64,000 nt of DNA. Origin: a bacterium (lineage in GTDB: Bacteria > Patescibacteriota > Andersenbacteria > UBA10190 > CAIZMI01). Position numbers and translations under genes: made by a program. The notes under the pieces were generated by a model. That model was not told the DNA's origin and made no database searches. It saw only the letters and a list, made by a program, of their open reading frames with translations. Positions 19,458-57,964 of this stretch are shown one piece after another (positions within the stretch are counted from its first letter, which is position 1; each line of letters starts with the position of its first letter). Location of the stretch: assembly GCA_030647555.1 (NCBI GenBank), contig JAUSJG010000007.1:36169-100168 (forward strand). The letters run 5' to 3'.

Positions 19458-20114
19458 TTATACTTTATCGCTGATACGGGTTTCTAAAACAGCGATGCCG
19501 GCCTTATCGGTTACAATTGTGGTTGTACGAAGCAAATCGTTGGCCGTAATCACTTCCGGATTTTTCACAATCACATCTTGCAAATTTCGACTGGCGCGCA
19601 AGTAGGGCGCGCGGGTGACTTTATCGCCCGAAACCAAAAACAAAACGATCCCTTTTACCGGCAACTTACCAAACGCCGCGACCAACTCTTTGGTCTTACC
19701 TGTGATTTTTGGTAAATCATTTAAGACAACCATTTCTTCATCCTTAATTTTTCCAACCAAAACACCGGCCAGGGCCGTGCGATTCATACCTTTCGGGGTG
19801 TGTGACGTGTAGTTTCGTTCCGCGCGAGGACCAAAAGCGACACCACCCTTACGCCAAATTGGCGAACGACTGGAACCGGCACGCGCGCGACCAGTCCCTT
19901 TTTGTTTCCACGGCTTAATACCGCCACCACGACGTTCGGAACGATCTTTGGTGTGAGCGCGACTAACGCGCTTGTTGGTATCGAAATTAACGGCCACTTG
20001 ATGTAACAAAATCGGCGAAACGGTTTTATTGTCCCAAGCGGAAAAACTGTCTTGCGTCGCCACTTTCTTTCCTTCTAAGTTTAAAATATTAATTTCCATA
20101 TTACTCTCCCACAA
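19458..20114 (-). CDS. rplD: 50S ribosomal protein L4
   Basis: 218 aa. L4 family. Confidence 0.9.
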   Translation of the reverse strand: MWESNMEINILNLEGKKVATQDSFSAWDNKTVSPILLHQVAVNFDTNKRVSRAHTKDRSERRGGGIKPWKQKGTGRARAGSSRSPIWRKGGVAFGPRAERNYTSHTPKGMNRTALAGVLVGKIKDEEMVVLNDLPKITGKTKELVAAFGKLPVKGIVLFLVSGDKVTRAPYLRASRNLQDVIVKNPEVITANDLLRTTTIVTDKAGIAVLETRISDKV

Positions 20115-20706
20115 TACTTAAAAGCGAATTCTTCGGACCGGGAACGGCGCCACGCACAACCAAAATGTTCGTATTTGGCACAACATCAACAACTTGAAGA
20201 CCCTTGGTTGTAACCTTCGCGCCACCCATCCGACCAGCCATACGCATACCTTTCAAAACGTGTTGGGGCCAACCGGAACCGATGGAACCCGGGGCACGTT
20301 CGGCGTGCTTTGTACCGTGCGTCGCGTTGTGGCCATGAAAATGATGTCGTTTTACGACACCGGCAAAACCCATACCTCGAGATGTTCCTGTCACATTGAC
20401 GATATCACCGACCTTAAACGTATTGACGTCTACCACATCACCACGTTTTAAGTCAGTCTTTTCAAAATTATAGGCCTTCAATGTTCTAAAATGCGGAAGT
20501 TCTTTCAGGTGACCAAGTTCGGCTTTTGTCATATTCTTTTCTTTTTTCTCGCCAAAACCAAGTTGCACTTGCTTGCCTTTTTCACCCATTTCACGAACCA
20601 AGGTAACTTGGCAAGGACCGGCTTGCATTAACGTAACAGGAACGGACTTTCCGTCCGTTTCAAAAATCGTTGTCATGCCGATCTTTTTGGCTAAAATTGC
20701 TTTCAT
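20101..20706 (-). CDS. rplC: 50S ribosomal protein L3
   Basis: 201 aa. L3 family. This is the first gene of the interrupted S10 operon segment. Confidence 0.9.
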   Translation of the reverse strand: MKAILAKKIGMTTIFETDGKSVPVTLMQAGPCQVTLVREMGEKGKQVQLGFGEKKEKNMTKAELGHLKELPHFRTLKAYNFEKTDLKRGDVVDVNTFKVGDIVNVTGTSRGMGFAGVVKRHHFHGHNATHGTKHAERAPGSIGSGWPQHVLKGMRMAGRMGGAKVTTKGLQVVDVVPNTNILVVRGAVPGPKNSLLSIVGE

Positions 20707-20920
20707 TATTCTCTTAATATAAAAATTTTACCGGGGCCTTCACCGAAGAACCCGTTCTCACGAGCAGACCCGCCAGTTTCCTGTTTCAGGACTTGGCCGG
20801 GATGGGGACTAGTTTTAATGAGCTGTGCAATATGTATACAGGGGAACGGATATCACGTCAAGCCCTGCTGACAACGAAATCCTATTCGCTTATAGAAGCC
20901 ATATTTTAGACTTTTTCCTC

Positions 20921-21062
20921 ATGAATTTTTAATTTGAAATTTGAAATTTTTAATCAATTTGAAATAAACTAATATCTTAATTTGAAAAACGCGTTTTTAT
21001 TTATTTCAAATTTGTGTATTAAAAATTGATTTCAAATTAAAAATTTCAAATTTCAAATTCGC
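20921..21062. repeat. Family D long imperfect palindrome. Arms are TTTGAAAT/ATTTCAAA units around GAAAAACGCGTTTTT.
   Basis: Near-identical arms occur at 41308-41451 and 44813-44948; all three share AATTTTTAATTTGAAATTTGAAATTTTTAATCAATTTGAAATA. Confidence 0.8.
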
Positions 21063-21163
21063 GAACACGCGCCTATTGACTTTTTCCCCGTTTGGGAGTA
21101 CAAATATTTGTTACTGACTTCTGTTTTTGGATTTCACCTCCTGTTTTTTCAAAGGAATTTACA

Positions 21164-21793
21164 ATGGAAAAGGGACAACATTTTGCGCTTTTGGCCGTCG
21201 AGGACAATACTCTCCACCTCCGCGATCTCATGCAAGTGATCGGCGAGTTGCCCGACGACTTTCCACTGGACTTGGAAATCAAGTGCGTGCGTTCATTGCG
21301 GGAAGCTCTGAACAACCTCGAGTCCGCCGACGGTGTCATTACTGACGTCTTCTTTCCCGAAATCCCTGACGGAGACGCCACCCAGCCAAACGGCAAAAAA
21401 GTCGTCGAGGCCTGCATCGCGGCACAGAAACCGGTGGTGTGGATTACGTCTACATATCACCACGGCACGATGACGAACGCTGTGAGTGAGTGGGGTCGCG
21501 ATCGCGGTCTCGAGATGTTCGACTGCCCTAACGCCGGCCGTGGAAGCGAAGAAGCGCCACACAAGCCATGGAAGGAGGCGCTATACGGCCTGATCTACAC
21601 GGCAGTAGAGATCGAGATGAAATTACTACAGTTCAAGGACGGACAGATTCAGCGGAGAGTAAACTATAATAAAGATTTCAGCCTGGCGGCAGGAATCTAT
21701 CGCGAATTGATGCTCCTCTATCTTTCCGCCGAAAATATCAAACCATACCCAGTCATGAAAAAGATGCTCGATATGGGTTTTCCGCGGAAGTAG
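21164..21793 (+). CDS. Putative stand-alone receiver-domain (CheY-like) protein with a C-terminal extension
   Basis: ALLAVEDN, a candidate phospho-acceptor D in GVITDVFFPE, and KPVVWITS. A possible SD, AAGGA, lies upstream. The assignment is tentative. Confidence 0.4.
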   Translation: MEKGQHFALLAVEDNTLHLRDLMQVIGELPDDFPLDLEIKCVRSLREALNNLESADGVITDVFFPEIPDGDATQPNGKKVVEACIAAQKPVVWITSTYHHGTMTNAVSEWGRDRGLEMFDCPNAGRGSEEAPHKPWKEALYGLIYTAVEIEMKLLQFKDGQIQRRVNYNKDFSLAAGIYRELMLLYLSAENIKPYPVMKKMLDMGFPRK

Positions 21794-21860
21794 CGACGCC
21801 CGCTTGCAACTCCGGCAGAATCCCTCCCCACCTCCCTTTGAATAAAGGGAGGAATCGCAC

Positions 21861-21903
21861 ACCCCAGCCAGGTTTTCCAACCTCGCTGGGGATTTTTATT
21901 TTT
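21861..21903 (+). terminator. Rho-independent terminator after the receiver-like gene
   Basis: CCCCAGCCaggttttccaacctcGCTGGGG followed by ATTTTTATTTTT. Confidence 0.6.
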
Positions 21904-22060
21904 CTCTTCAGAGAAAAATACCCCCCAAAGCTTTAGCGACGGGGGGTAAAGCCAGCTATCCCCCTCCGCTCCGCGTGTTCGCGGAGCTACGGGGGATTAT
22001 TATAATATAATTTTCCTTCAGAAAATATATATTATAATAAAAAACGGCTCGTGAGAACCG

Positions 22061-22381
22061 TTACTGCCCTACTACCGCTGGCTGGTGCAAAAAGTCAACC
22101 ATCTGTCGCCAACGAACGTACCGCGCACGGAGACTGGTCGGAACTATGCCCAATGTTTCCTCCATTGCCACTTTTTGTTTCATTTCTTCGATAGGAGGCA
22201 ACGCCTTAACATACACCGGCAATCTACCAATCATTTCCTGCAAAAATTTGACCGTCTTCGCGTTGTCCCCCGCGCGTAGAGCTGTATCGTGGCGCACCAA
22301 CGCTTCAGTCGACAACCATCTGTGCAACTCCCGAAACAACTCATCTACCGTGAAAGTGATTTCCGTGGCCATACAACCCAT
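22061..22381 (-). CDS. Hypothetical protein
   Basis: 106-aa ORF with no recognisable motif. Confidence 0.35.
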   Translation of the reverse strand: MGCMATEITFTVDELFRELHRWLSTEALVRHDTALRAGDNAKTVKFLQEMIGRLPVYVKALPPIEEMKQKVAMEETLGIVPTSLRARYVRWRQMVDFLHQPAVVGQ

Positions 22382-22619
22382 CCTTTTCTGTTGTTGGTTG
22401 ACTACCGATCTGAATGAACATTTTCTACTTAAATTAATCTATGACCAATTGTTTTTTTCGGCAAGCATGTATTTACAAAAGACCGCCCTTCGGGGCGGTC
22501 TTAATATTTTATTTGGATCCCGCTCTTCAGAGCGAGGCTCGCCCAGATGGGCGGCCCCGATGTCCACCCTCCGCTAAAGCTACTGGGTGGCAGGCGCTCG
22601 GGGATGACCCCTGAAGGGG

Positions 22620-22814
22620 TCACTTCATCGAGACGTCGACACCCGCCGGGATTTGCAAGCTTTGCAACGCGTCTACCGTCTTGGGTGTAAAGTTTTGAAT
22701 GTCGATGAGGCGCTTATGCACCCGAATTTCATACTGATCACGCGCGTCTTTGTGCACAAACGTTGAGCTGTTCACCGTGTAACGCTTCCGTTCTGTTGTT
22801 TCATCGGCGTGCAA
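22620..22814 (-). pseudogene. Duplicated 3' fragment of rpsJ (the last ~60 codons of S10) plus a copy of its terminator hairpin (22478-22504)
   Basis: Nucleotides 22478-22799 are ~95 % identical to 29472-29698. The two copies differ by an extra ~95 nt at 22505-22620. The encoded peptide [57 protein letters not shown] is identical to the S10 C-terminus. Confidence 0.85.
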
Positions 22815-22893
22815 AACAAGATGAAAGTGTTAAAAAGTCTTTCTCAACAATAAATGATAAGAAACACCCACAAAAAAAATCTGACTAGTGAAG

Positions 22894-24606
22894 TCAGATG
22901 CTATTAAAAAGTTTTCCATTAAATTTGCTCATCCATTTCTGAAACGGATGCAGAACCGCTTGTTTCACGTCCCCGATCCGCTGTCCTAACTCACCACACG
23001 TCTGCAAATACGTATTGTTTGCATCCTGTCCGTGGTCAATCAGGAAGAGCGCGCAATGCTCGAGTTGTCCGAGACGCCGACAGTAATCGTAGTGAAAGTT
23101 TTCCCTAAGACGACCATCGAGCCTTTGACAGAAGAGCACTGCAGAGTGGCCGTCAAGGACATGCCGATCACAAAACTGCAGAAACAACACATAGCGCACT
23201 ACTTCGCCTTGAAGGGTGTCAGGTGCTATCATGGCAAATTTTGCTACGATACCGCTCTCTGCCATCAACTGTCCTAGCACTTTGCCCACAAACACCTCGT
23301 TCATCTTTTCTCCGCAAACATCAACAACCTTGTCCTTTCGACCAACAAAGCAGATAAGAGGACAACTTCGTTTGAAACCGACAACTTCCACAACATCATT
23401 TAGTCGGTAGCGATAGAATCCACCCCCTGTTGTAACTATTACTGAATACCTTTTCCCCACGTTTAACTGATGTGCCAAACACACACTTTCGCTATCATCC
23501 TCCTCGAACTCAAAAAAATGCGAGTTAACAGACAGCGCCGAACCACTATTTCTTAGAGGAAAAGATACGAAAGCCTCCGTCGCCATCAAACCCTTGGGCT
23601 GAACAACACAGTTTGAAAAATCACGCTGAAGCCGACTTGCTGCCACCTGCGCATTTCCATCCGCCCAACAACTAATAAGTCGAAGATTGGGCCAGATTGC
23701 CTCGTAAATATTCGCTTGTTTCCCCGGAGACAATATCTGCCCCAATTCCTCGGCTCGCGCTGGAAGCCTTTGGAGACGTTTTCGAATGCGACCAGCTACC
23801 TCTTTTTCAACATTGAGTTCAACTGACAGCGCACCCTTACGAATGTCCCAAATCAACCTATCAGCCCAACTGTATAATGGCGAAAGAAGCAGACTTAGAA
23901 ATGAGGGGTTCCAAACGGAAATCCATGTTAATCCTCTCTCCTGTAGCAAAAACCTCAGCGTGGCGTACCTAAACGAATCCATGTCTGAGACCAACGCTAA
24001 TTCTGACGGTGCAGCCATCACGTGTTCAAAAACCGATTGCCCCACCACTCCAAGATAGTTTTTTTCATCATCAAAACCAATTGGAATTCCACCCTGCGTA
24101 TGGCGAACCTTGACCCCAACCGGCGTCACCGACCAGTAAGCTTTGCCGCCAATGATACTGGGGTATTCTGTCATAAGCGAAAAAATCCACGGCGCTATTC
24201 CCTCCTGAAACTGCGCGATCAATGACTTGGTGTATGGCACGAGTTTGGATGCCATTGTTGATCCGCTTGTCACACCAAATCTCTGAACCCTCTCGCTGGT
24301 CAAAACACCATTCTCCCCCCCTTCTATGCGTTTCACATACGGAACTAAATCTTCATAAGAACGAATTGGCACTAGTTGTTGGAAATTGGAAATTGAATGA
24401 ATTTCACGGAATTGATGTTCTTGTCCAAACGCTGTTTCCCTGTTCCCGACAACAATAGCCTTGAGACACTTTGTTTGAGCGATTTCCACTTCGTTAATTG
24501 AGTTATACCACCTTCTCGCCCCAAAACTGACACTAGCCAACCAAACACTGTTACAAATGGTGGTTGTGAAGTTCATCTTCTCTCCTTTGCTTCCGACATG
24601 AACCAA
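22894..24606 (-). CDS. GH3-family acyl-adenylate-forming amido synthetase
   Basis: GVTSGSTMASKLVPYT matches the GH3 SSGT-type P-loop. YRYRLNDVVEVVGF matches the GH3 YRxGD motif. About 560 aa. The start may instead be MNFTT at 24576. Confidence 0.7.
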   Translation of the reverse strand: MVHVGSKGEKMNFTTTICNSVWLASVSFGARRWYNSINEVEIAQTKCLKAIVVGNRETAFGQEHQFREIHSISNFQQLVPIRSYEDLVPYVKRIEGGENGVLTSERVQRFGVTSGSTMASKLVPYTKSLIAQFQEGIAPWIFSLMTEYPSIIGGKAYWSVTPVGVKVRHTQGGIPIGFDDEKNYLGVVGQSVFEHVMAAPSELALVSDMDSFRYATLRFLLQERGLTWISVWNPSFLSLLLSPLYSWADRLIWDIRKGALSVELNVEKEVAGRIRKRLQRLPARAEELGQILSPGKQANIYEAIWPNLRLISCWADGNAQVAASRLQRDFSNCVVQPKGLMATEAFVSFPLRNSGSALSVNSHFFEFEEDDSESVCLAHQLNVGKRYSVIVTTGGGFYRYRLNDVVEVVGFKRSCPLICFVGRKDKVVDVCGEKMNEVFVGKVLGQLMAESGIVAKFAMIAPDTLQGEVVRYVLFLQFCDRHVLDGHSAVLFCQRLDGRLRENFHYDYCRRLGQLEHCALFLIDHGQDANNTYLQTCGELGQRIGDVKQAVLHPFQKWMSKFNGKLFNSI

Positions 24607-25312
24607 GTAAGCGAATCGCCGTAGCCGTAAAATTTGCTCGGGCTATCGGTGCCACACAAACAAGTTCCGTGCCCGTTAGATATGTAGGGTTTTTCTCAAA
24701 AAAGAAACGTGTGTAAGTATCGAGTTTTTGAGGCGGTTCTGCATCAATACTCCCCGGCACCAGACGTTGGGTTTCTCTTGAAAATAATACTCGACCGCTA
24801 CCAGGATCATATTCTTCAGGATATTTCAACAAACCGAAAGCATCTCTCACGACAAGATCTTGAGCCTGATCTTCCCCATCAGGCCTTGGTAAGAAATGCC
24901 GAAAAAAGAACGGCAAGACCCGGTAAGTGCGCCACCCCTTAGACATTAAAATATAGTAGACCTCGCGTGCAGGATGAGACTCCAATACATGCACGAAATA
25001 GCGCATAATTTCGACACCGAAACCGGCACTACAGCGGCAAGCGTCGACTACAACTGTGTCCCCAGAGAATACCCCCATCACACTTCTCCCAAAGACCTGA
25101 AGGTCTAAAACCATGAGCGTCGAAAATCCGACGATTTCTCCATTTGGCAAATCGCGCCGAAGTAGCATGACCACTTCTTTTTCACGCAGATCGTGTGCAA
25201 ACACTTCTTTGTCTACACCCAAAAATACGCGTGTTAGAAGCCAAAACATCCGTTCTGTTTCTTGAACCGTCAGATCCTCAACTGTTTTCGTAAATCCTAA
25301 TATTTTGGACAT
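24551..25312 (-). CDS. Hypothetical protein, possibly a GNAT-fold N-acyltransferase
   Basis: 253 aa. Size and secondary-structure pattern are compatible with N-acyl amino acid synthase-like GNAT proteins. There is no decisive motif. Confidence 0.35.
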   Translation of the reverse strand: MSKILGFTKTVEDLTVQETERMFWLLTRVFLGVDKEVFAHDLREKEVVMLLRRDLPNGEIVGFSTLMVLDLQVFGRSVMGVFSGDTVVVDACRCSAGFGVEIMRYFVHVLESHPAREVYYILMSKGWRTYRVLPFFFRHFLPRPDGEDQAQDLVVRDAFGLLKYPEEYDPGSGRVLFSRETQRLVPGSIDAEPPQKLDTYTRFFFEKNPTYLTGTELVCVAPIARANFTATAIRLLGSCRKQRREDELHNHHL

Positions 25313-25458
25313 GATTATCCCCTCCAGGAAAAGTTGTCAAAAAAACACTACGTACGTTAGTACTAGCACAAATGCTTGCATTAGCAAATATTAGTTGCTA
25401 CCTTGAGCCAGCAGAAGTTTTTTCCCAATGAAATAAGCTAAACAAGGAGTACTTTGAC

Positions 25459-26784
25459 ATGACAAGAATACTGTTCATTATGCCCGACGCGCACATGCAC
25501 AAGTTGAAATTGTTTGGATTCACAAAGTCTTTGCGTGAAGCACCACTAACCCTCACCACTCTCGCCTCGATGGTTCCTAGTGGCCACCACATAACGATTG
25601 TCGACGGCAGTATTGACCCAATCCCCATGGACTACAAAGCGGACATAGTAGCGATAAGTTGTATAACGGGCACATGTCGACAAGGCTACGTATTGGCAGA
25701 TCATTTCAGACACAAGGGTTCATACGTGGTTATTGGCGGAGTGCATGCTTCAATCCTGCCTGACGAGGCACAGGAACATGCAGATACTGTAATAGTGGGA
25801 CCAGCGGAATTCTCCTGGCCGACATTTCTTACCGACTATTCTTCTGAAAAACAAAAGAAGCGTTATGGAAGTATCGACTGCTACCACGACGACGTTCTCA
25901 GGGATGTGCCTTTACCAAGAAGAGATCTCCAAAGAAATAGCGGTTACACACTGCCGGCAACAGTCCAAGCAACAAGGGGTTGTAAACATCGATGCGATTT
26001 CTGTTGCGTCAATGCAGTGTGGCCGAGATTTGTTAAACGACCCATAGCAGACGTGATCAGAGACATTTCGTCATTGCCTGGCAAGAGGATGGTTTTCAAC
26101 GATGTGAGTCTTGTCGACGATGTCGAATACGCAAAAGAACTCTTTAGGGCAATGATCCCTCTCAGAAAACATTGGGGTGGATTAGCGACTGTGCTTGTGG
26201 TCAAAGACGATGAACTCGTTGATTTAATGATGCGGAGCGGTTGTAAGTATCTTCTGCTTGGGTTTGAATCGGGAAATCAAGGTGTGCTAAAAGACATTGC
26301 CAAAGGGTTCAACCACGCAATCAACTACCACGAAGTTGTCGATAAACTACACGCGCATGACATAACAATCCAGGGCTGCTTCGTTTTTGGTTTCGATCAC
26401 GACACAGAAGATGTCTTTGAAAGTACGGTGGCAACAGTAGACGATCTTGGAATCGACATCCCTCGCTATTCCATTTACACACCATACCCGGGAACACCAC
26501 TTTTTGAACGATTGCAATCCGAGGGAAGAATCATCAGTCTTAACTGGAATAATTACGACACAATGCATGTAGTATTCCAGCCAAAGCTAATGACACCAGA
26601 ACGCTTGTATGACGGCTTCAAGTGGTCCTACAAACAAACGTTTAAAATACCGCGCATCGCAAGACGAACAATGTGGAACGGAAGGCACCCATCGGTAATC
26701 AATTTCGTCGGCAATCTCGCATACAGAATCTTCGTAAGAAGATTATATCGAGAAGAAAGATTCGCCCGTCCATTTATGCCCTAG
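25459..26784 (+). CDS. B12-binding-domain radical SAM protein
   Basis: An N-terminal cobalamin-binding-like domain, then CKHRCDFCC (CxxxCxxC). Confidence 0.8.
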   Translation: MTRILFIMPDAHMHKLKLFGFTKSLREAPLTLTTLASMVPSGHHITIVDGSIDPIPMDYKADIVAISCITGTCRQGYVLADHFRHKGSYVVIGGVHASILPDEAQEHADTVIVGPAEFSWPTFLTDYSSEKQKKRYGSIDCYHDDVLRDVPLPRRDLQRNSGYTLPATVQATRGCKHRCDFCCVNAVWPRFVKRPIADVIRDISSLPGKRMVFNDVSLVDDVEYAKELFRAMIPLRKHWGGLATVLVVKDDELVDLMMRSGCKYLLLGFESGNQGVLKDIAKGFNHAINYHEVVDKLHAHDITIQGCFVFGFDHDTEDVFESTVATVDDLGIDIPRYSIYTPYPGTPLFERLQSEGRIISLNWNNYDTMHVVFQPKLMTPERLYDGFKWSYKQTFKIPRIARRTMWNGRHPSVINFVGNLAYRIFVRRLYREERFARPFMP

Positions 26785-26850
26785 TCAAACGTCACTCCGA
26801 AGTGTGACGTTTTTTTAAAAACCTTGCTATGTGCAATAGCAAGGTAATTT

Positions 26851-27957
26851 CTACAAAGTCGCCAATTCGAGATGCGACGTCTTGAGACATGGAAGATCTA
26901 CTCCGCTATCTGCCCAATACACCAAGTATATATTACTCCGAAGCTGCCTACAGGCATACTTGGAAGCAATCCCTGACAATCCATTTCCTACACAAAGAGC
27001 AACGCAGAGGTAGTCATGCCCTCTGCCCGACCAGATTTGACATGCGCGACTCAAAAGAGATTCGAACACTCCGCGATCATCATCTTCTGAACTCATAAAA
27101 CAAGCACTCAATGTTTTAACTTCACCTCCGATCTTAGGAATAATTGGTTTGCCAAGTAGACGAGAATTGCAGTTTAAGAATGGTCGCAACAAACTCAACC
27201 TACAGGACAGACCAGTAACCACGGTTTGCTTAAATGATTGCTGATTCCACACACCAAATGTCCCCAAAATACGACCCCTTGATTCGCAAACAAGCAAGTC
27301 ATCACTACTGAAACCAAGAGAAAAGTCGTTTTTTACAAAAATTTCTTCAAACCGATAAGTGGGCGCAAATTGATAACGCTGATTCCACCGCTCAAGACAT
27401 TTATGGGCTAAGGGCAATTGATGATAAGGACATTTCTGTACATCAACATCAACTTTTCCACACATATTTCTTTTTTTGATTGGTATTAAATACGTTACAA
27501 GTGTGCCGATTTGGTGGTAAACAGGATGACCCGCCCGTGGCCTTTGCAAAACACTCTGAAATCGACCGTTCTCCTCCAAAATTGTTGTTAAGTAATATGG
27601 GACCTCTCCGTCTTCATGCAGTGTTCGCAAGTGGCGATGAGCTTTCGCTAGTGTCATACCCCCGCGAAATTCTGGTAAAAGACGGAGCATATTCAAGTAA
27701 CCAATCGCCTTCTTTTCACCATCAACGTATAAGTTTCGCACACTTCGACAGGCAAAACCCACAACATCACCCGCAACTCCCGCTCGACAAACAATCGTCT
27801 GATTCTTTTCATTTCCAATTTTTCCAACTGCAAAAAAACTTGGCTCTCGCAAGAACGCAAGAGATATATCGCCGGGCATTGGTGTCCGACGCAGGATGTT
27901 CCTCATTGCCTCATCATCTGCCGTGTTGGCGAAATCAATCACAGATCTGGTGTTCAC
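26851..27957 (-). CDS. Hypothetical protein, possibly a tandem acyltransferase fold
   Basis: 368-aa ORF with no clear motif. It sits inside the rSAM/GH3 cluster. Confidence 0.35.
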   Translation of the reverse strand: MNTRSVIDFANTADDEAMRNILRRTPMPGDISLAFLREPSFFAVGKIGNEKNQTIVCRAGVAGDVVGFACRSVRNLYVDGEKKAIGYLNMLRLLPEFRGGMTLAKAHRHLRTLHEDGEVPYYLTTILEENGRFQSVLQRPRAGHPVYHQIGTLVTYLIPIKKRNMCGKVDVDVQKCPYHQLPLAHKCLERWNQRYQFAPTYRFEEIFVKNDFSLGFSSDDLLVCESRGRILGTFGVWNQQSFKQTVVTGLSCRLSLLRPFLNCNSRLLGKPIIPKIGGEVKTLSACFMSSEDDDRGVFESLLSRACQIWSGRGHDYLCVALCVGNGLSGIASKYACRQLRSNIYLVYWADSGVDLPCLKTSHLELATL

Positions 27958-27970
27958 TTTTTTGTCCTCT

Positions 27971-29317
27971 CTAGTAGATTGGTTCGGGAAGTGTTGGTTT
28001 TTCCCCTAACGGCAGGCCATCACGTTGAGTTATCTCCCTGCGCAAAAGCCAATTGACATATGCAAACACTCCGGCCTTTTTGACTGAACTGCAGTTTCCT
28101 CGAATATTACTTGCCCTCCTGACAATACTTCGGAAACTATAGAATTTGCGACGAGCTTCAATACACGCTTTGTGCAACTCCTCGGCGGATATTCCATTTG
28201 GTCTGAAAACAATATCGCCAAACCGAAACGATGGTGACAACCACCACTCATCATCCGTCAACTGACCACCACTCTGGAATTGCTCGTAAAGTGGCGTGCC
28301 AGGAAACGGAACAAGATGGTTAAATGCCCCAATAAAGAGTCCAAAATCGATAGCCGCCTCCGTTGTTCTTTGGATATCCTCCTTGGTCTCATTGCCATAA
28401 CCGAAAACAAATGTCCCATAAAGCGCTATTCCATAACCATGAATGATGTCGATGAGTCTTTTGTAATCTCCCAATTTGATGTTTACCTTCTTGCCCATGC
28501 TAGCTAGTGTGTCACGCCGGAGAGACTCAAAGCCTATGAGTATTCCAACGCAACCACTCCTAGCCATCAATTCAAGCAGTTCGCAATCATTGGCCATCGT
28601 TAACGTGCCCTGACCCACCCACTTGATCTTATGTGGGATTAGCTCCCGACAAAGGTCTTTTGCGTGCGCCGGATTACCCACAAAGTTATCTTCGACGAAA
28701 AAAACTTCTCTGTTTTGAAGCAACGCAATCTCTTCAACAACACTGTCAATAGAACGCGCCGTATACGTTGAAGAAGTGACTGCGGCAATCGAACAGAAAT
28801 TGCATCCAAATGGGCATCCGCGCCCGGTTTCAACGCATGATAATGGAAAATACGATCTTGTTCCGAAAATTTCCCTCCTTGGGAGAACAAAATTGTATGA
28901 CACGGATCGATCTTGCGAATATCGTCGCTTCAGGCACCCTGCTTGCGCATCACGCATCACTTGTCCCCAAATTAGTTCTGCGTAACCAATAACAATACTA
29001 TCGGCATACCTTTGCGCTTCTTCGGGTCTCAGTGTTACATGATATCCACCAAGAACAGTTTTCACGCCTCTTTGGTGATATTCCCTAACAATCTCGTATG
29101 CTCTTTTTGCCGTGTAAGCCTCAACCGTAATCGCAACAAGATCTGTTGACAAATCAAAGTTGATATTCTCAAAACGGTCATCAAAAAAAGATACTTCCAC
29201 ATCAACTGGTGTGAGGCCAGCCAGTGTAGCAATCGGAAGCGGTTCCATTTGCCAAGTACGCACATACTTTCCACCAGGCCTCTTCCCAACACTTGGCATA
29301 ATAAACGTAACCTTCAT
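27971..29317 (-). CDS. B12-binding-domain radical SAM protein
   Basis: An N-terminal B12-binding-like domain, then GRGCPFGCNFCSI (CxxxCxxC). It is a paralog of the 25459 gene. Confidence 0.8.
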   Translation of the reverse strand: MKVTFIMPSVGKRPGGKYVRTWQMEPLPIATLAGLTPVDVEVSFFDDRFENINFDLSTDLVAITVEAYTAKRAYEIVREYHQRGVKTVLGGYHVTLRPEEAQRYADSIVIGYAELIWGQVMRDAQAGCLKRRYSQDRSVSYNFVLPRREIFGTRSYFPLSCVETGRGCPFGCNFCSIAAVTSSTYTARSIDSVVEEIALLQNREVFFVEDNFVGNPAHAKDLCRELIPHKIKWVGQGTLTMANDCELLELMARSGCVGILIGFESLRRDTLASMGKKVNIKLGDYKRLIDIIHGYGIALYGTFVFGYGNETKEDIQRTTEAAIDFGLFIGAFNHLVPFPGTPLYEQFQSGGQLTDDEWWLSPSFRFGDIVFRPNGISAEELHKACIEARRKFYSFRSIVRRASNIRGNCSSVKKAGVFAYVNWLLRREITQRDGLPLGEKPTLPEPIY

Positions 29318-29459
29318 CTTTGAATCCTTATGTTCGAATTGTGAATGAACTCAATACTAGATCCGTGCGACAACACTATCACAACCAAATATTTTAACAA
29401 ATACAATTCCTGACCAACGAATCCCTCGATCGCTACGCGCGTGGTATTAGGGAAAGGAG

Positions 29460-29497
29460 CAAATCAAACATAAGACCGCCCTTGCGGGCGGTCTTAT
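29460..29497 (-). terminator. Hairpin terminator downstream of rpsJ
   Basis: AAGACCGCCCttgcGGGCGGTCTT. T-rich flanks on both strands suggest it may act in both directions. It is duplicated at 22478-22504. Confidence 0.55.
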
Positions 29498-29512
29498 CTA
29501 TAGTATATTTTA

Positions 29513-29899
29513 TTATTTCATAGACACATCTACACCTGCCGGGATTTGCAGGCTCTGCAACGCGTCTACCGTCTTGGGTGTAAAGTTTTGAATATCGATG
29601 AGGCGCTTGTGGACGCGAATCTCATACTGATCACGCGCGTCTTTGTGCACAAACGTTGAGCTGTTCACCGTGTAACGCTTCCGTTCTGTTGGAAGCGGTA
29701 CCGGACCAAAAACGCGGGCTCCGGTTCTGATCACCGTATCGGCAATTTGCTTTGCCGATTGATCCACGAGCTTGTAATCATAAGCCTTGATCTTGATGCG
29801 AATTCTCGGCCCCGTTTGTTCCGGAGTGACAGCCACGGCTTCCGCCACAACCTCATCCGTAACATCTTTGGCGTCGTCAATTATTTCGTCCGTAGGCAT
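29513..29899 (-). CDS. rpsJ: 30S ribosomal protein S10 with an ~25 aa acidic N-terminal extension
   Basis: The C-terminal 100 aa are canonical S10: [10 protein letters not shown]...RLIDI. Confidence 0.9.
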
Positions 29900-29925: not shown

Positions 29926-31131
29926 TTATTTGAGAATCTTGGTAACGATACCGGCACCGACTGTGCGACCACCTTCACGGATAGCAAAACGCATTTGTTG
30001 TTCCATGGCTACTTCCTTAATCAATGTTACAACACCCTTCACTGTGTCACCCGGCATAACCATTTCCGTACCTTCCGGTAAAGCGACTTCTCCTGTTACA
30101 TCCGTTGTGCGGATATAAAATTGCGGTTTGTAGCCCTTGAAGAACGGCGTGTGACGTCCGCCTTCATCTTTTGTCAAAACGTAGATTTCACATTCAAATT
30201 GAGAGTGAGGCGTGATGGATCCCGGCTTGGCCAAAACTTGACCACGCTCGACATCTTCTTTCTTTGTGCCACGGAGCAAGACACCGGCGTTATCTCCGGC
30301 CAAACCTTCGTCCAAAGTTTTGTTGAACATTTCAATACCGGTAACAATCGACTTGGCGGTTGGACGCAAACCAACGATTTCTACTTCATCGTTTGTGTGC
30401 ACCTTTCCTCTTTCAATACGACCGGTAACAACTGTTCCGCGACCTTCAATGGAGAAAATATCTTCAATGGAGAGCAAAAACGGTTGATCAATGGCGCGAA
30501 CGGGTTCCGGAATGGCTTCGTCCAAAGCAGCAACCAAATCGTAAACGGATTTTGCACCCGGATCTTCCGCGGAAGTGGCCTTCAACGCTTGCAAGGCGGA
30601 TCCGCGAATGACTCTGGCCTTTTCGCCATCATAATGATACTTGGAAAGAATTTCGCGCACTTCGGCTTCCACCAAATCAACCAATTCCGGATCATCCACC
30701 GCGTCAACTTTGTTTAAGAAAACGACAATTTCCGGAACACCAATTTGGTACGCAAGCAAAACGTGTTCACGAGTTTGTGGCATTGGACCGTCAATAGCCG
30801 ATACGACCAAAATTGCGCCGTCCATTTGCGCGGCACCGGTGATCATGTTCTTGACATAATCAGCGTGGCCAGGACAGTCAACGTGGGCATAATGACGCTT
30901 TTCCGAGGAATATTCGGTGTGCGCGGTAGCGATTGTTAAAATTTTAGTCGGATCACGACGACCTTCTTTTTCAGAAGCTTTTGCGATATCATCGTAACTT
31001 CGATCTGTCGCCAAACCCTTAAGGGACATAACGTGCGTCAACGCTGCGGTTAAGGTTGTCTTTCCGTGATCAACGTGACCAATGGTCCCGACGTTAATGT
31101 GCGGCTTATTTCTCTCAAACTTTTCTGCCAT
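29926..31131 (-). CDS. tuf: Elongation factor Tu
   Basis: 401 aa. [15 protein letters not shown] and NKVD GTPase motifs. Confidence 0.97.
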
Positions 31132-31284: not shown

Positions 31285-33405
31285 TTAGTTTCCGACGCGA
31301 TGCTTTTTGCCCGACCGACCCTCGGTTACCTCTTTTGCTACGTTCGTGGGCACTGCTTCGTAGCGATTAAACTCCATTGTATAACTTGCGCGACCTTGTG
31401 TCATTGAACGCAACGACGTCGCGTAACCAAACATCGTCGCCAACGGCACAAAGGCATCAATCACCTTAACATTCATACGGTCGTTCATCCCTACAACTTG
31501 ACCGCGACGCGCGTTAAGATCTCCCACAACGTCACCCATATAATCTTCCGGCGTAGTGACTTCAACTTTCATAATCGGTTCGAGAAGGACCGGGTTAGCA
31601 GCCTTAACGGCTTCTTGAAAAGCTTTGCTACCGGCAATTTTGAAAGCGGCTTCGGAAGAATCGACATCGTGGTAAGAACCATCAAAAAGCGTCACAACAA
31701 CATCGATTGTCGGATAACCCGCCAACACGCCGGAATCGGAAGCTTCTTTTACGCCCTTTTCAATGGCCGGCACAAACTCTTGCGGAATAACGCCACCTTT
31801 AATTTCACTGACAAACTCCACGCCCTTCCCGCGTTCGAGTGGCGCGACGCGCAACCAACAGTGACCATATTGACCACGTCCACCGGACTGACGAATATAT
31901 TTTCCTTCCGCTTCCGCCGAACCGAGAATTGTTTCTTTGTAGGCCACTTGCGGGGCGCCAACATTGGCTTCCACGCCGAATTCGCGACGCATCCGATCAA
32001 CGATAATTTCCAAGTGCAATTCACCCATACCGGCAATAATCAACTGCGATGTTTCAATGTCGGTACTGATACGGAAAGTTGGATCTTCATCAGACAATTT
32101 CTTAAGCGCCATACCCATCTTTTCCTGATCGGCCTTGGTTTTTGGTTCGATGGCAATCCGAATAACCGGTTCCGGAAATGTAATGCGTTCCAACATAATC
32201 GGGTTTTCCTCGTCACACAAAGTGTCACCGGTTGTGGTGTGTTTCATTCCAATCAACGCGCCAATATTTCCCGCGGAAAGACTTTGCACTTCTTCACGCT
32301 TATCGGCATGAATCCGCAAAATTCGACTAATACGTTCCTTTTCGTTGGCATTTGCATTCAAAACGTATGTTCCGGTATTGATATTTCCGGAATAAACACG
32401 GAAAAAAGTAAGCTGACCGACATAGGGATCGGTGGCCACTTTAAAAGCCAGGGCCGTAAACGGTTCGGTGACATCGGGATGACGTTCAATTTTTACTTCC
32501 GGATCATCAATGTCGGTACCCATAATTGCCGGAACATCCATCGGTGATGGCAGAAGTTCGATCACCGCGTCCAAAGCAAATTGCACGCCTTTGTTTTTTA
32601 AAGCAGAACCGCATAAAACGGGAACCACTTTATAGGCAATCACGGCACGACGCAACGCGGAATGCAATTCTTCATAGTTCATTGTTTCACCGGCCAGATA
32701 TTTTTCGGTTAATGCATCATCGCTTTCGGCGATTTTTTCCACAAACTTATTGCGCCATTCTTCGGCTTGCGCTTTTTGGTTTTCCGGAATGGGAATTTCG
32801 ACGATTGTTTCACCGTGCGGACCATCAAAACGAAATGCTTTTAGTTTTAACAAATCGATGACACCGGAAAAATCTCCCTCACTGCCAATTGGCAAAAAGG
32901 CCGGTATCGCGTTTGGCGTTAAACGAAGAAGAATACTTTCGTAAGAACGGAAAAAATCCGCGCCTGTGCGGTCTAACTTATTGATGAAACAAACGCGCGG
33001 TACTTTGTATTTATCGGCTTGACGCCAAACTGTTTCACTCTGTGGTTCCACGCCGGCAACACCATCAAACACAACAACCGCGCCGTCCAAAACACGCAAA
33101 CTACGTTCCACTTCCGCGGTAAAATCAACGTGCCCGGGAGTATCGATCAAATTCAGACGAAAACCTTTCCAAAAACAAGTGGTGGCGGCCGAAGTGATTG
33201 TAATACCGCGCTCGCGTTCTTGTTCCATCCAATCCATTACCGTTTCACCTTCGTGCACTTCCCCGATTTTGTGAGAAATACCGGTATAAAAAAGCACACG
33301 TTCCGACATCGTGGTTTTACCGGCATCAATGTGCGCTACAATGCCGAAATTTCTAATCTTTTCGATTGGAATCGCGACGGAAAATTGATCGTCTTTTTCG
33401 GGCAT
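31285..33405 (-). CDS. fusA: Elongation factor G
   Basis: 706 aa. [17 protein letters not shown] and NKLD motifs. Confidence 0.97.
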
Positions 33406-33486: not shown

Positions 33487-33957
33487 TTAGAAGTTGAAAT
33501 GCGAGAACGCCTTGTTTGCTTCGGCCATTCTGTGCACTTCGTCGCGCTTCTTAATCGCGCCACCCTCTTTTTTCGCGGCATCCAAAAGCTCGGCCGCCAA
33601 TTTATCAAAAAACTTAATTCCATTTCGGTCGCGTGTGGCTTGAATAATCCAACGCATTGCCAAGGTGAGTCGACGTTCCGCGCGCACTTCCATCGCGATT
33701 TGGTAGTTCGCACCACCAACGCGCTTGGCTCGCACCTCCAAAACGGGAGAAACGTTGCGAATCGCATTATCAAAAATACTCAATGGATCTTGTTTGGTTG
33801 TTTCGCTGATGACGTCAAAGGCATCATAAACAATCGATCTGGCCAAAGTTTTTTTGCCACCCTTCATTAGATGGTTGGCAAAACGCTCAATCATAACGTT
33901 TCCAAACTTTGGGTCTGGGAGAATTTCGCGACGGGTTTTAATAGCTCTTCGTGGCAT
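33487..33957 (-). CDS. rpsG: 30S ribosomal protein S7
   Basis: 156 aa. Starts MPRRAIKTRREILPDPKF. Confidence 0.95.
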   Translation of the reverse strand: MPRRAIKTRREILPDPKFGNVMIERFANHLMKGGKKTLARSIVYDAFDVISETTKQDPLSIFDNAIRNVSPVLEVRAKRVGGANYQIAMEVRAERRLTLAMRWIIQATRDRNGIKFFDKLAAELLDAAKKEGGAIKKRDEVHRMAEANKAFSHFNF

Positions 33958-34226: not shown

Positions 34227-34664
34227 CTACTTCTTTTTGTCTGATGGTTTTTTTGTTCCATAAATGGAACGACCGCGACGACGCGTTTCCACACCTTGCG
34301 TATCGAGGACGCCACGGACAACACGATAACGGACGCCGTTCAAATCTTTGACGCGACCACCACGAACCAAAACAACAGAATGTTCTTGCAAGTTATGCCC
34401 TTCACCCGGGATGTGAGCGGTAATTTCCATCCCATTGGTCAAACGCACGCGGGCAATTTTACGCAAAGCGGAATTTGGTTTGCGAGGAGTTTGCGTTCTT
34501 ACCTGAATACAAACGCCCCGCTTAAACGGGCTACCCTTAGAAAGATAGACCGGACGATTTTTCAAAACATTGAACATTTTTCCCAAAGCTGGGACACGAG
34601 ATTTTTTTACGGCTTGCTTGCGGGGTTTTCTGATTAACTGATTAATTGTTGGCATTGATGGCAA
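34227..34664 (-). CDS. rpsL: 30S ribosomal protein S12
   Basis: Starts [13 protein letters not shown] and contains [10 protein letters not shown]. Confidence 0.95.
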
Positions 34665-34963: not shown

Positions 34964-35941
34964 ATGTCGACCGATTCAACAACAACAGAAACGATCACCC
35001 CTCCGCCAGTAGCAGATCCCACCAAAGAAACCGACCCGCGTTTCCCGCTTGAGCAAATTATCGGCACCGAACCGATGAAAGTTTGCAAAAATTGGGCAGA
35101 CTGGTTAGACGAGTGGCAAAGCGCGGGCTTCTTCCAACGACTTGGCCTGCTTGAAGTGGGCCTTTTGATGCCCAGGACTACACGCGAAGTGGTTTGTCAG
35201 CAATTTCGATTTTTCGTTACCCTCTCCGATTACAAAACAAGCAAAGAACCTTGTATACACAACGTAAGGGAGTGGGGGGCATTAAGCGCGAAAGCCTCGG
35301 AAATGCTGGTCCGAGAAGTATTCACCAACAACGCCGACAAATATTCCCAGCCATCATGGTCTTGGCTTTTGGACACTCCAGAGTTGTTCGAAACCGTGTT
35401 GTGGTACTTCCGACCAAGGTTTTCTACCAGACAAATCAATCTTGTGGCAATCGACTACACTGACTCCGACGAATCCAAAGCCATTATGCGTAAATTTTTG
35501 CGCGATTTTTGCCGGCTGGCTTGGACCGAAGAAAAATGTGAAAAGCGACCATGGCTCGCAGAAAAACGCCCACAGATGGTTCCCATCCTTTGCGGACTAG
35601 GCGGACCGGCAATTTGGGAAGCGACGGACCAGCACGGCGTAATCAGCTTCGATGACGAATGTCTGAAAGCGCTTGAGCAAACAGTTCTTTCCGTCAAGGT
35701 CACTTTGCCACGCGACTCGGTCTATCGGTTTCCCAAAAACGTCCAGGATTCCGTGAATTGTGGCGTCGAATGTGCCCGTGTCCTTCTTGTTCTTCAGGCG
35801 ATGGCCACAGAAGAACTTCGGTACACACAGATCGATGCCCACGAAGAACGAATTGCCGAATTGCGCGGACAAATGGGCCAACTACAAATGGAGCTCGCCG
35901 CTCTCGGAGGCGATCTGCCCGACGAAAAGCCAGGACAGTAA
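34964..35941 (+). CDS. Hypothetical protein
   Basis: 325 aa with good SD support. The N-terminus is T/P-rich. No recognisable family. Confidence 0.5.
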   Translation: MSTDSTTTETITPPPVADPTKETDPRFPLEQIIGTEPMKVCKNWADWLDEWQSAGFFQRLGLLEVGLLMPRTTREVVCQQFRFFVTLSDYKTSKEPCIHNVREWGALSAKASEMLVREVFTNNADKYSQPSWSWLLDTPELFETVLWYFRPRFSTRQINLVAIDYTDSDESKAIMRKFLRDFCRLAWTEEKCEKRPWLAEKRPQMVPILCGLGGPAIWEATDQHGVISFDDECLKALEQTVLSVKVTLPRDSVYRFPKNVQDSVNCGVECARVLLVLQAMATEELRYTQIDAHEERIAELRGQMGQLQMELAALGGDLPDEKPGQ

Positions 35942-37136: not shown

Positions 37137-37904
37137 TCATGCCGGACTAACTTCCGACGACTTTGTTATTTTCTTTTCAATTAATTCCGGAAATCGATTG
37201 TTTGTAATATCAAAAACTGTAATCTCAAGGAAATTAAGCTTAAGATGATTAACAATATCGTACTTACGCTTGACGTTATTGTCATATTTTTTGTTTGCCC
37301 CCTTCAAGCCAAAATATTCAATGAACAACCCATGATCTGGCAAATAAAAATCTGTATTAAGCTTTGATGACGGATAGTTTATATTTCGTTCATGTTTAAT
37401 TTTGCGATCATATAACCAGTCATCGATAATTTTTTCAGTAAAAGAATCACACCAGTGCCCATCTTTTGCAAGCATACGCTTCGTAAACTTTTCCGGATTT
37501 GGAACAAACCCTGCGGCAACAATTGCGTTATTCCAACTACCGAAAAACTTCTTACAAATTCTAAATTTGTTGAGTTCATATTTCAGCGGAATACATCCAT
37601 TTTTCTCATGAAATTCCTTGATCAGGCGCAAGATATCAGTCTTGTTGAATTTAATTTTGAACTGGTATTTTCTCAAACGAATTCTTGCTTTTCTTTTTTC
37701 TTCCAGTGTCCACTTATGAGCCTTTAATTTATGCCGTTCTTCAATCGCGATTTTCTGATCAAATGAAACATTAATTCCCTTTGTCCACAAAAATGCAGAA
37801 CCATTGCTGATTTTTAGCTTATGAGCAATTTCACGGTGCGTGTAACCTTCTGTTCGCAACCGCCTGGCACTATCTTTGGTGATAATTGTGTACATTTGCC
37901 CCAA
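37137..37904 (-). CDS. HTH plus homing-endonuclease-associated repeat (HARE) plus DUF559/Vsr-like PD-(D/E)XK endonuclease domain protein
   Basis: An N-terminal HTH, LRTEGYTHREIAHKLKIS. A HARE motif in the middle, GCIPLKYELNKF...FGSWNNAIVAAGF. A C-terminal DFYLPDHGLFIEYFG...YD, like DUF559 restriction-endonuclease-fold proteins. Confidence 0.6.
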   Translation of the reverse strand: MGQMYTIITKDSARRLRTEGYTHREIAHKLKISNGSAFLWTKGINVSFDQKIAIEERHKLKAHKWTLEEKRKARIRLRKYQFKIKFNKTDILRLIKEFHEKNGCIPLKYELNKFRICKKFFGSWNNAIVAAGFVPNPEKFTKRMLAKDGHWCDSFTEKIIDDWLYDRKIKHERNINYPSSKLNTDFYLPDHGLFIEYFGLKGANKKYDNNVKRKYDIVNHLKLNFLEITVFDITNNRFPELIEKKITKSSEVSPA

Positions 37905-37957: not shown

Positions 37958-38028
37958 CGGGGTGTCGTATAGTGGTAGTACATGCCCATGGGGTGGGTAG
38001 AGCCCGGTTTCGATTACCGGCGTCCCGA
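37958..38028 (+). tRNA. tRNA-Pro (anticodon GGG); CCA not encoded
   Basis: Acceptor stem CGGGGTG/CGTCCCG, with two G-U pairs. D-arm GTAT-AGTGGTA-GTAC. Anticodon stem TGCCC/GGGTA with loop ATGGGGT: U33, G37, anticodon GGG. T-arm CCGGT-TTCGATT-ACCGG. Discriminator A. Confidence 0.75.
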
Positions 38029-38038
38029 CGATAAAAAA

Positions 38039-53255: not shown

Positions 53256-53879
53256 TCAAATAATTACAGAGCGTACCGCCATTCGATCTAATGAATTATT
53301 ATATTTCTGAAGTAATTCAGGGTTTTTTTCGATAATTAATAAGTTGTAATATTTTTGCCATGCTTTCTTAAAATCACGAAAATATGCGTTATTATGAAAC
53401 CTTAATCTTTTATCAACAATTTGCACGCCAGCATCTTTATCAATACATCCTTCACAATAAAAAATACCTTCTCCGTCAGTATATCCATCTGATTGATTTT
53501 GAACCAATGAATCTGCTTTTATAAAATATTCGTGTGCTAAACCACAACGAAATAGCGTATAAATATTTCCTTCCTTGTCTATGAAATCTACATCCTTAAA
53601 TTTCTGCTTAAATTCTTTGTAGTGATTCTTATCACTATTCCACTCAAAAAACTCCAGCGCCTTATTAAACTGTTCTTGACTTTTTCCCTGTAAACCAAGC
53701 GTTCCATTTGCAAGTCCACCAAGAAATTCTGTGTTAGATAACAGAGCCAAAGCCACAGTATAATTTGCTTTCGCCTTGATACAATTTTGAATATCGTTAA
53801 AGATAAAACCAAAAATATATTTCTTAAAGTATTCTTTTATTAACTCTTCATTTCTTTCCATATTTTTTATTTCTCCCAA
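53256..53879 (-). CDS. Hypothetical protein; the last gene of the R-M operon
   Basis: 207 aa. It overlaps the hsdMS stop by 13 nt, so it is probably co-transcribed. No recognisable domain. Confidence 0.45.
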   Translation of the reverse strand: MGEIKNMERNEELIKEYFKKYIFGFIFNDIQNCIKAKANYTVALALLSNTEFLGGLANGTLGLQGKSQEQFNKALEFFEWNSDKNHYKEFKQKFKDVDFIDKEGNIYTLFRCGLAHEYFIKADSLVQNQSDGYTDGEGIFYCEGCIDKDAGVQIVDKRLRFHNNAYFRDFKKAWQKYYNLLIIEKNPELLQKYNNSLDRMAVRSVII

Positions 53880-56401: not shown

Positions 56402-56522
56402 ATTATTTCAATTTTTTAAGATTAACCGCCTTTCTACTACATTCTCACTACATGATTTTTTGGCTAAGATAGGCCATTTTTATGAATTTTATCAACAATA
56501 TTCATAAAACCACTACATGCTT

Positions 56523-57962: not shown

Positions 57963-57964
57963 AT

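Follow-up and report, generated by a model that had tools for sequence, protein, structure and literature searches.

A five-gene cassette of GH3, GNAT-fold and B12-type radical-SAM proteins at the 3′ end of rpsJ in a probable CPR bacterium, a candidate pathway for an acylated amide metabolite

The question addressed here is what five enzyme genes are doing between rpsJ and rplC in the ribosomal protein operon of an uncultured bacterium. The genes lie in a window of 64,000 nucleotides, which is the whole stretch of DNA that was analysed (positions 36,169 to 100,168 of contig JAUSJG010000007.1, assembly GCA_030647555.1). They encode a GH3-family amido synthetase, two proteins of GNAT fold (GNAT253 and the tandem-GNAT protein tGNAT368) and two radical S-adenosylmethionine enzymes of the B12-dependent type (rSAM-A and rSAM-B). 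The five open reading frames (ORFs) were confirmed in the window and coincide with the NCBI gene calls for the source metagenome-assembled genome (MAG). The genes fall into five enzyme families whose modular arrangement recurs across phyla, and here they sit as an insertion at the 3′ end of rpsJ. Our reading, to which we give somewhat better than even chances, is that they form a horizontally acquired, self-contained cassette for an acylated amide metabolite, likeliest of the N-acyl amino acid or lipo-amino-acid type.

The genes recur together in other genomes. The family of the 253-aa protein was scanned against one genome per species, and this gave 30 loci, all of them in MAGs, from about 15 phyla. 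The loci belong to candidate phyla radiation (CPR) lineages, Ktedonobacteria/Chloroflexia, Dehalococcoidia, Terracidiphilus and Angelobacter (Acidobacteriota), Actinomycetes, Bacillota, Peptococcaceae, Campylobacteraceae, Sericytochromatia/Cyanobacteria, Planctomycetia, Omnitrophota, Thermotogaceae, WOR-3 and Gammaproteobacteria. A stretch of 10 kb holds all five families in 21 of the 30 loci, and these complete loci span CPR, Chloroflexota, Acidobacteriota, Actinomycetes, Omnitrophota, Thermotogaceae, Peptococcaceae, WOR-3 and Gammaproteobacteria. Such co-location is far beyond chance, and it bears out the view of a preliminary description of this DNA, made from the letters alone, that the genes make up one biosynthetic cluster. 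Reciprocal BLAST returned one orthologue per locus for each window protein. The GH3 homologues are 48–56% identical on contigs that carry the five families side by side, among them CPR MAGs (L002, L003) and Ktedonobacteria-like Chloroflexota (L004, L006).

The comparison also revealed an internal order that had escaped the preliminary description, namely a fixed core with a variable set of radical-SAM genes. GH3 directly follows GNAT253 wherever the contig permits, with the two genes overlapping or abutting, and the tandem GNAT is present in almost all of the loci. The number of radical-SAM genes varies from none (L019, L026, L028 and L029) through two in most loci and four in Terracidiphilus, Omnitrophota and Thermotogaceae to five in L033. 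The triad of GNAT253, GH3 and tandem GNAT stands without any radical-SAM gene in L026, L028 and L029. The triad is thus the conserved core, and the radical-SAM genes form a tailoring set of zero to five copies. On clustering, most radical-SAM proteins resolve into a main orthogroup A and a main orthogroup B, with one member of each per locus in about 24 loci, and the remainder are lineage-specific extras; the pair in the window is thus the canonical minimal set. The genes also group into two tight modules, GNAT253 with GH3 and rSAM-B with the tandem GNAT. rSAM-B adjoins the tandem GNAT in most loci, elsewhere the two genes overlap, and in the window rSAM-B lies 13 bp upstream. In one metagenomic protein of 817 aa (P0318) an orthologue of rSAM-B (46% identical) is fused to a tandem GNAT. 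An assembly or frameshift artefact is conceivable for P0318; taken as it stands, the fusion would lend support of the Rosetta-stone type to a functional link between the two proteins. It was also observed that in two Chloroflexia MAGs of long-read style (L012 and L016) GH3 is split into several ORFs, with rSAM-B split in L012 only and GNAT253 split in L016; the split genes reflect either pseudogenes or indel errors.

The GH3 gene (22894–24576, minus strand) encodes 560 aa, the most likely start being the ATG at 24576 and not the TTG at 24606. The N-terminal, middle and C-terminal Pfam domains of the family (PF03321, PF23571 and PF23572) are all matched above their gathering scores, with E-values of 6e-51, 1.5e-17 and 5.7e-05 and scores of 173.8, 63.8 and 24.2 bits (cutoff 23.6). 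Ten sequences of plant GH3 crystal structures match the protein with E-values of 3e-20 to 2e-14. The segment GVTSGSTMASK (TSGSTMASK) aligns with the plant motif TSSGTSGGERK (SSGTSGGERK), and YRYRLND aligns with YRYRVGD of AtGH3.5 and GH3.6; the second motif, GLMATEAF, was placed by eye only. The family assignment proposed earlier from GVTSGSTMASK and YRYRLND is thus upheld by three domains as well as by alignment with the nucleotide-binding motifs of the plant enzymes. The sole NCBIfam match is to the OlsH model NF052613, at 61.8 bits against an equivalog cutoff of 620, and the idea that the protein is an OlsH orthologue, that is a lyso-ornithine lipid synthetase, was rejected on this score. 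These scores place the window protein within the GH3 family, not as an orthologue of OlsH.

GNAT253 (24551–25312, minus strand) is a single-domain GNAT protein with a C-terminal extension. Because its gene overlaps the start of GH3, the two genes are predicted to be translationally coupled. The tandem-GNAT protein is encoded at 26851–27957 (minus strand). AlphaFold modelling, for which 37 and 43 homologues were aligned, gave GNAT folds for the two proteins, with mean predicted local distance difference test scores (pLDDT) of 91.9 and 92.4, so that both proteins left unassigned before are acyltransferase-like as modelled. Among homologues, PF13527 is matched by 28 of 43 for the 253-aa protein and PF00583 by 7 of 37 for the 368-aa protein. 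The earlier suggestion of acyltransferases stands in its general form, but the two families named for them, PF13444 and PF13480, gave no match among the window proteins or the members of their families. Against the PDB, the profile of the 253-aa family gave marginal matches to AAC(2′) enzymes only, and that of the 368-aa family found no PDB sequence. Many of the GNAT matches are aminoglycoside or xenobiotic acetyltransferases. The tandem-GNAT family is common in metagenomes though unnamed, since, of 1.84 billion representatives searched with its profile, 1,853 clusters at 50% identity match it at E ≤ 1e-30.

The C-terminus of the tandem GNAT deserves a comment. Of 197 family members, 185 have Leu as the last residue, placed identically in all of them within the motif [HY][LIV]E[VIL][AG]xL-COOH, and the window protein shares this invariant residue. 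N-myristoyltransferase is the second-best structural match of the protein; the small-molecule tandem GNATs MAB_4324, MshD and glucosamine N-acetyltransferase score equally well. N-myristoyltransferase uses its C-terminal carboxylate (L455) as catalytic base, and this has been described as unique among GNATs (PMC4964394). By analogy, the tandem GNAT may use its own invariant carboxylate as the base and be a bacterial counterpart of that enzyme, which should be taken as a lead and not as a result.

Both radical-SAM proteins carry the CxxxCxxC motif, as CKHRCDFC and CPFGCNFC. rSAM-A (25459–26784, plus strand, 441 aa, orthogroup A) and rSAM-B (27971–29317, minus strand, 448 aa, orthogroup B) match PF04055 with 41.4 and 55 bits (cutoff 29.5). 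For the B12-binding domain PF02310 (cutoff 32.1), rSAM-B lies above the cutoff with 34.4 bits and rSAM-A just below it with 31.9. The two proteins are 29% identical over their full length (E 3e-70), and their earlier description as paralogous radical-SAM proteins holds, with a borderline B12-binding score for rSAM-A. Among curated NCBIfam models the best matches of both are HpnJ, BchE, PhpK and a "lipid biosynthesis B12/rSAM" model, all far below their cutoffs; the top score is 95 of 578 bits, for HpnJ, and the two best, HpnJ and BchE, are non-methylating enzymes. Models for ApyD and for methyltransferases of ribosomally synthesised and post-translationally modified peptides (RiPPs) match weakly. 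The nearest solved structure is 9ccb (38–48 bits; E 7e-12 for rSAM-A), which is MgmA, the B12-dependent glutamine C-methyltransferase of methyl-CoM reductase. Both proteins fall in the BchE/HpnJ/DUF4070-like part of class B. C-methylation of unactivated carbons is plausible as their likeliest chemistry, unproven as it is, and others such as cyclisation or rearrangement are possible.

rSAM-A differs from its four neighbours in orientation and in history, and the cassette is mosaic. Its gene runs opposite to theirs, and the protein is 72% identical to that of a Paceibacteria locus (L013), about 60% to that of Terracidiphilus and only 41% to those of the loci that best match the other four genes (L013, L009, L017 and L018 were compared). 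This pattern suggests that tailoring genes are swapped between cassettes. rSAM-B is 61–66% identical across CPR and Ktedonobacteria. The divergent intergenic region between GNAT253 and rSAM-A (25313–25458) has promoter-like sites on both strands, with consensus matches at 25340 (minus) and 25454 (plus), each at 10 of 12 positions; the counts of such sites are no higher than in shuffled sequence and so are weak evidence. An inverted repeat (26806–26860) lies between the convergent rSAM-A and tandem-GNAT genes.

How the genes came to lie in the operon can be read from their borders. On the minus strand the gene order is rpsL, rpsG, fusA, tuf, rpsJ, about 8.8 kb of other DNA, rplC, rplD and the remaining S10 operon. 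A direct repeat of 175 nt, 93% identical, flanks the five genes (22624–22798 and 29517–29691). On the right, the repeat forms the last 175 nt of an intact rpsJ (S10; 29513–29899, minus strand). The left copy is an orphan fragment of 58 codons and a stop (22620–22796, minus strand), and the peptide it would encode matches the C-terminal 58 residues of RpsJ without a difference. A second repeat, 90% identical, is the terminator hairpin downstream of rpsJ (22475–22503 and 29468–29496). The left hairpin (22474–22503, annotated on the minus strand and scored as terminator-like in a scan of the plus strand) forms the distal end of the duplicated attachment region, and the right one (29468–29500, minus strand) the proximal edge of the cargo. 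Pairwise alignment showed a GC-rich insertion of about 100 nt (22511–22615) between hairpin and rpsJ fragment in the left copy only. It has a partial inverted match of 18 nt at 21929–21946, 600 bp away, and may be a small repeated or mobile element. The cargo proper (22799–29467) holds the five genes and their own terminator only, a hairpin with a T-run at the GH3 stop codon (22879–22899, minus strand). In order there are thus rpsJ, terminator, cargo, rpsJ 3′ fragment and terminator.

All 12 of the 12 coding differences between the repeat copies are synonymous, which argues that the copies diverged within functional genes of different lineages and not by decay after a local duplication. In a close relative belonging to the same 90%-identity EF-Tu cluster (L045) the site is empty: rpsJ and its terminator are followed by about 300 bp and rplC, and nothing there matches window positions 20806–29468. 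Taken together, the flanking repeats, the synonymous differences and the empty site indicate horizontal acquisition by a single-crossover (Campbell-type) insertion, in agreement with the earlier proposal of an acquired insert within the ribosomal protein operon. Chromosomal rpsJ would have recombined with a circular DNA that carried the rpsJ 3′ end and terminator beside the cargo; a crossover within this homology of about 225 bp on the incoming DNA would give exactly the order observed. The GC content does not distinguish the island. An exact 36-mer of the rpsJ repeat had no match in metagenome contigs, and a degenerate codon pattern of the repeat found seven relatives. The two repeat copies are 87.6% and 86.1% identical to one relative (L041), a comparison that does not indicate which copy is native. 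The junction between rpsJ and rplC is an insertion hotspot in this lineage, as it carries a glycine-rich protein of surface type (923 aa) and an acidic one (337 aa) in L041 (3033–8150), a 1,322-aa protein and a DDE transposase in L044 (6280–10620), sugar-metabolism genes in L038 (1–5096) and nothing in L045 (11617–12015). Recombinase or integrase genes flank the cluster in other CPR loci.

It should be noted that a further 1.8 kb between rplC and the island (20707–22474) is also absent from the empty site of L045. It contains two orphan ORFs that match no Pfam or NCBIfam model, of 233 aa (plus strand, 21092–21793) and 106 aa (minus strand, 22061–22381), and an AT-rich inverted repeat of 51 nt made of AATTTGAAATTT units at 20923–21060.

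A pathway can be proposed from these parts. GH3 would adenylate a carboxylic acid with ATP and join it to an amine or amino acid, a reaction established in the plant enzymes and in OlsH; the acid is plausibly a free fatty acid, like that used by OlsH, or another hydrophobic acid. [quoted passage not shown] The triad could in this way build up a small scaffold that contains two or three acyl links. The radical-SAM enzymes of orthogroups A and B would then modify unactivated carbons of the scaffold, most likely by C-methylation. The preliminary description had proposed that an N-acyl amide, or a conjugate of an amino acid, is made first and C-methylated afterwards; this is consistent with the evidence, and it is a deduction that is as yet unproven.

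Genes beside the cluster in other genomes give hints about the product. Exporters of the major facilitator superfamily (MFS) were found in CPR loci (L003, L008, L013) and in loci of the Ktedonobacteria type (L004, L006), and clusters of the MFS family also in L010, L014 and L016. A class-I methyltransferase is present in eight loci, a fatty-acid-desaturase-family protein (FA_desaturase) in L004 and L029, Rieske oxygenases in L029 and L036 and a P450 in L029. In L031 an AMP-binding ligase lies directly upstream of four radical-SAM genes, and in L028 the triad is surrounded by a TonB receptor, TonB, MarR and an outer-membrane efflux protein. Small proteins of about 140 aa with several transmembrane segments and without a family lie beside the cluster in six loci of three phyla. 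Taken together the accessory genes suggest a hydrophobic product that is membrane-associated or exported. Since Rieske, P450 or fatty-acid-desaturase-type oxygenases stand beside the core in some loci that lack radical-SAM genes (one from Acidobacteria and several of the Ktedonobacteria type), O2-dependent oxygenases may take over the tailoring role there.

Several points weigh against an acylated amide pathway brought in as a unit. Substrates and product are conjectural for every member of the cluster family. The GH3 protein is far from OlsH (62 of 620 bits), and the OlsI type of O-acyltransferase, an alpha/beta-hydrolase, was found neither in the island nor in the 30 related loci. GNAT253 and tGNAT368 themselves match no Pfam or NCBIfam model, and acyl-CoA and acyl-ACP are only presumed as their donors. 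Class-B radical-SAM enzymes of the BchE/HpnJ type do chemistry besides methylation. The hints of lipid chemistry come each from few loci, and the window contains no such gene. A reduced CPR-like host may lack a supply of CoA, ACP and cobalamin. Furthermore, neither the ORF list nor Pfam revealed an integrase or recombinase in the cargo, and the mechanism of recombination is deduced from the architecture alone.

These points leave room for other explanations. The enzymes could modify the cell envelope by acylating and alkylating a membrane-anchored or cell-wall precursor, for instance the N-terminus of a lipoprotein, the stem of peptidoglycan or a host lipid that has been scavenged; the tandem GNAT would then act on an N-terminal amine in the manner of N-myristoyltransferase. 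We regard this as unlikely. CPR bacteria depend on scavenged lipids, the small multi-transmembrane proteins occur in six loci, and proteins with an Lnb_N domain (PF13387), which we take to be linked to lipoprotein N-acylation, adjoin the cluster in two CPR loci (L003:1982-2824 and L013:10680-11519). However, membrane attachment of the five proteins would be an assumption, the tandem GNATs that act on small molecules score as well as N-myristoyltransferase, and the MFS exporters and the TonB receptor suit a released compound better. A role in which amidation and acetylation inactivate some acid or amine from outside, for example an antibiotic or a signal of the host, would account for the many aminoglycoside and xenobiotic acetyltransferases among the GNAT matches and for the plant GH3 structures, as plant GH3 enzymes inactivate hormones by conjugation. 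In other CPR loci the mobile cassette is also surrounded by defence and restriction-modification genes. On the other hand, two to five B12-type radical-SAM enzymes are hard to justify in a detoxification system, and three amide-forming enzymes strictly coupled in one operon suggest that a scaffold is being assembled; resistance is an improbable role. Synthesis of an acylated amide accords better than either the envelope or the detoxification reading with the exporters and with the variable set of radical-SAM genes.

The radical-SAM genes could instead suggest that the substrate is a ribosomal peptide or a protein, C-methylated by these enzymes and acylated by the GNATs at its N-terminus or side chains. 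Several B12-type radical-SAM paralogues are typical of heavily methylated RiPPs, the ApyD and RiPP methyltransferase models match weakly, and the nearest solved relative, MgmA, methylates a protein residue. Yet no conserved small ORF lies in the clusters or within 1.5 kb of them across phyla, the intergenic gaps of the island, at most 150 bp, hold no credible peptide gene, and there is no protease, RRE-type (RiPP recognition element) or leader-processing gene. The triad moreover persists without any radical-SAM gene, and we know of no role for GH3 in RiPPs. A peptide substrate is accordingly quite improbable in our estimate. Apparent families of small ORFs near the clusters were considered and rejected, being antisense shadows of neighbouring genes in closely related Ktedonobacteria. 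It is very improbable, finally, that the genes are decaying passenger DNA with no current function here, as might be thought of an island without an integrase, with an inverted rSAM-A of mosaic origin and a site where unrelated cargo often inserts. None of the five ORFs is shortened against its orthologues and their catalytic motifs are intact, which makes pseudogenisation unlikely, and an identical copy was assembled independently from a read archive.

Comparison with known systems places the cassette for an acylated amide in context. OlsH is the one bacterial GH3 that has been characterised; it uses free fatty acid and ATP, without CoA or ACP, to make N-acyl ornithine, and with OlsI it constitutes the ornithine-lipid pathway of Singulisphaera acidiphila (PMC12493201). 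Homologues of OlsH are listed in Planctomycetes, the FCB group and some Proteobacteria, and neither the taxa of the cassette nor its gene context are among them (PMC12493201; 2026 review). Like OlsH, the window protein is a bacterial GH3 with conserved nucleotide-binding motifs, and ATP-dependent amide formation, the first step of the OlsH pathway, would be its step as well. Unlike OlsH, its partners are two GNAT-fold proteins and B12-type radical-SAM enzymes in place of the alpha/beta-hydrolase OlsI, and it occurs in CPR, Chloroflexota, Acidobacteriota and others in contrast to the Planctomycetes and FCB group. With the plant enzymes (JAR1, GH3.5, GH3.6, GH3.12) it shares the three-domain family and the alignment of P-loop-like and YRxGD-type motifs; the plant enzymes are only about 20% identical to it, and are stand-alone hormone-conjugating enzymes that are not in operons.

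The radical-SAM proteins resemble other class-B enzymes (MgmA, TsrM, CysS, TokK, HpnJ and BchE) in having the CxxxCxxC core behind an N-terminal B12-binding domain, which in rSAM-A scores just below the cutoff, and rSAM-A has DUF4070, but they score far below every curated equivalog cutoff. For the tandem GNAT the systems to compare are N-myristoyltransferase, MshD (mycothiol synthase) and MAB_4324; the protein has no sequence-level match to the Pfam or PDB profiles of N-myristoyltransferase or MshD. The insertion resembles islands at the 3′ ends of conserved genes, in which repeats of the target 3′ end bracket the cargo, the target stays intact, relatives have an empty site and the site is a hotspot. 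It differs from them in having no integrase and in using a ribosomal protein gene, not a tRNA or transfer-messenger RNA (tmRNA) gene, as its target. It also differs in its long repeat (about 175–225 bp, 93% identical), which fits insertion by a homologous single crossover.

A search of the literature library used here found no description of a cluster that combines GH3, GNAT and B12 radical-SAM genes. The enzyme families and the mode of insertion are known in kind; the pathway is conserved, widespread and uncharacterised. After OlsH, which in 2025 gave bacterial GH3 its first function, it would be a second and far more elaborate GH3-centred pathway. The five genes, of about 6.7 kb, are a compact target for expression in the search for new acyl amides or membrane lipids, and the locus is a clear case of a biosynthetic island in the S10 ribosomal operon of a reduced-genome bacterium. 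A bolder and rather unlikely version would make the products a new, widespread class of acyl-amide lipids or lipopeptides, with a GH3 that uses scavenged free fatty acids, a tandem GNAT like N-myristoyltransferase and methylation or cross-linking at several sites by the radical-SAM enzymes. If it is true, the use of free scavenged fatty acids by GH3 would suit CPR bacteria that have no fatty acid synthase, and the C-terminal-carboxylate mechanism, so far held unique to the eukaryotic N-myristoyltransferase, would have a bacterial counterpart.

The host is probably a member of CPR/Patescibacteria, to judge from its relatives and gene content. The best homologues of the island were found in Paceibacteria, Tayloriibacteriota, Kaiserbacteria, Moraniibacteriota and Saccharibacteria. 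The deposited contig of the source MAG is 172 kb long, with locus tags of the form Q7S57_015xx (seen on the GNAT genes), and three proteins in our set (P0001, P0121 and P0174) are 100% identical to window proteins. The operon genes around the island, all on the minus strand, are rpsL (34227–34664), rpsG (33487–33957), fusA (31285–33405), tuf (29926–31131) and rplC (20101–20706). In the operon of the close relative L045, S5 is directly followed by L15, without an L30 gene. A second ORF of 401 aa that was suspected to be a duplicate of tuf proved to be FtsZ.

Other genes of the window are recorded here for completeness. An orphan ORF of 325 aa without a family (34964–35941, plus strand) lies directly upstream of rpsL on the opposite strand, and a 255-aa protein with a homing-endonuclease-associated repeat (37137–37904, minus strand) adjoins tRNA-Pro (37958–38029). 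A type I restriction-modification locus (53867–60544) encodes an R subunit of 859 aa and a protein of 844 aa in which the M and S subunits are fused, and between these two genes lies a gene of the Schlafen/AlbA_2-HATPase_c_4 type (479 aa). A protein of 608 aa (50970–52796) has an alpha/beta-hydrolase domain of the LCAT/lipase type, and could possibly be a source of free fatty acids from scavenged lipids in this bacterium.

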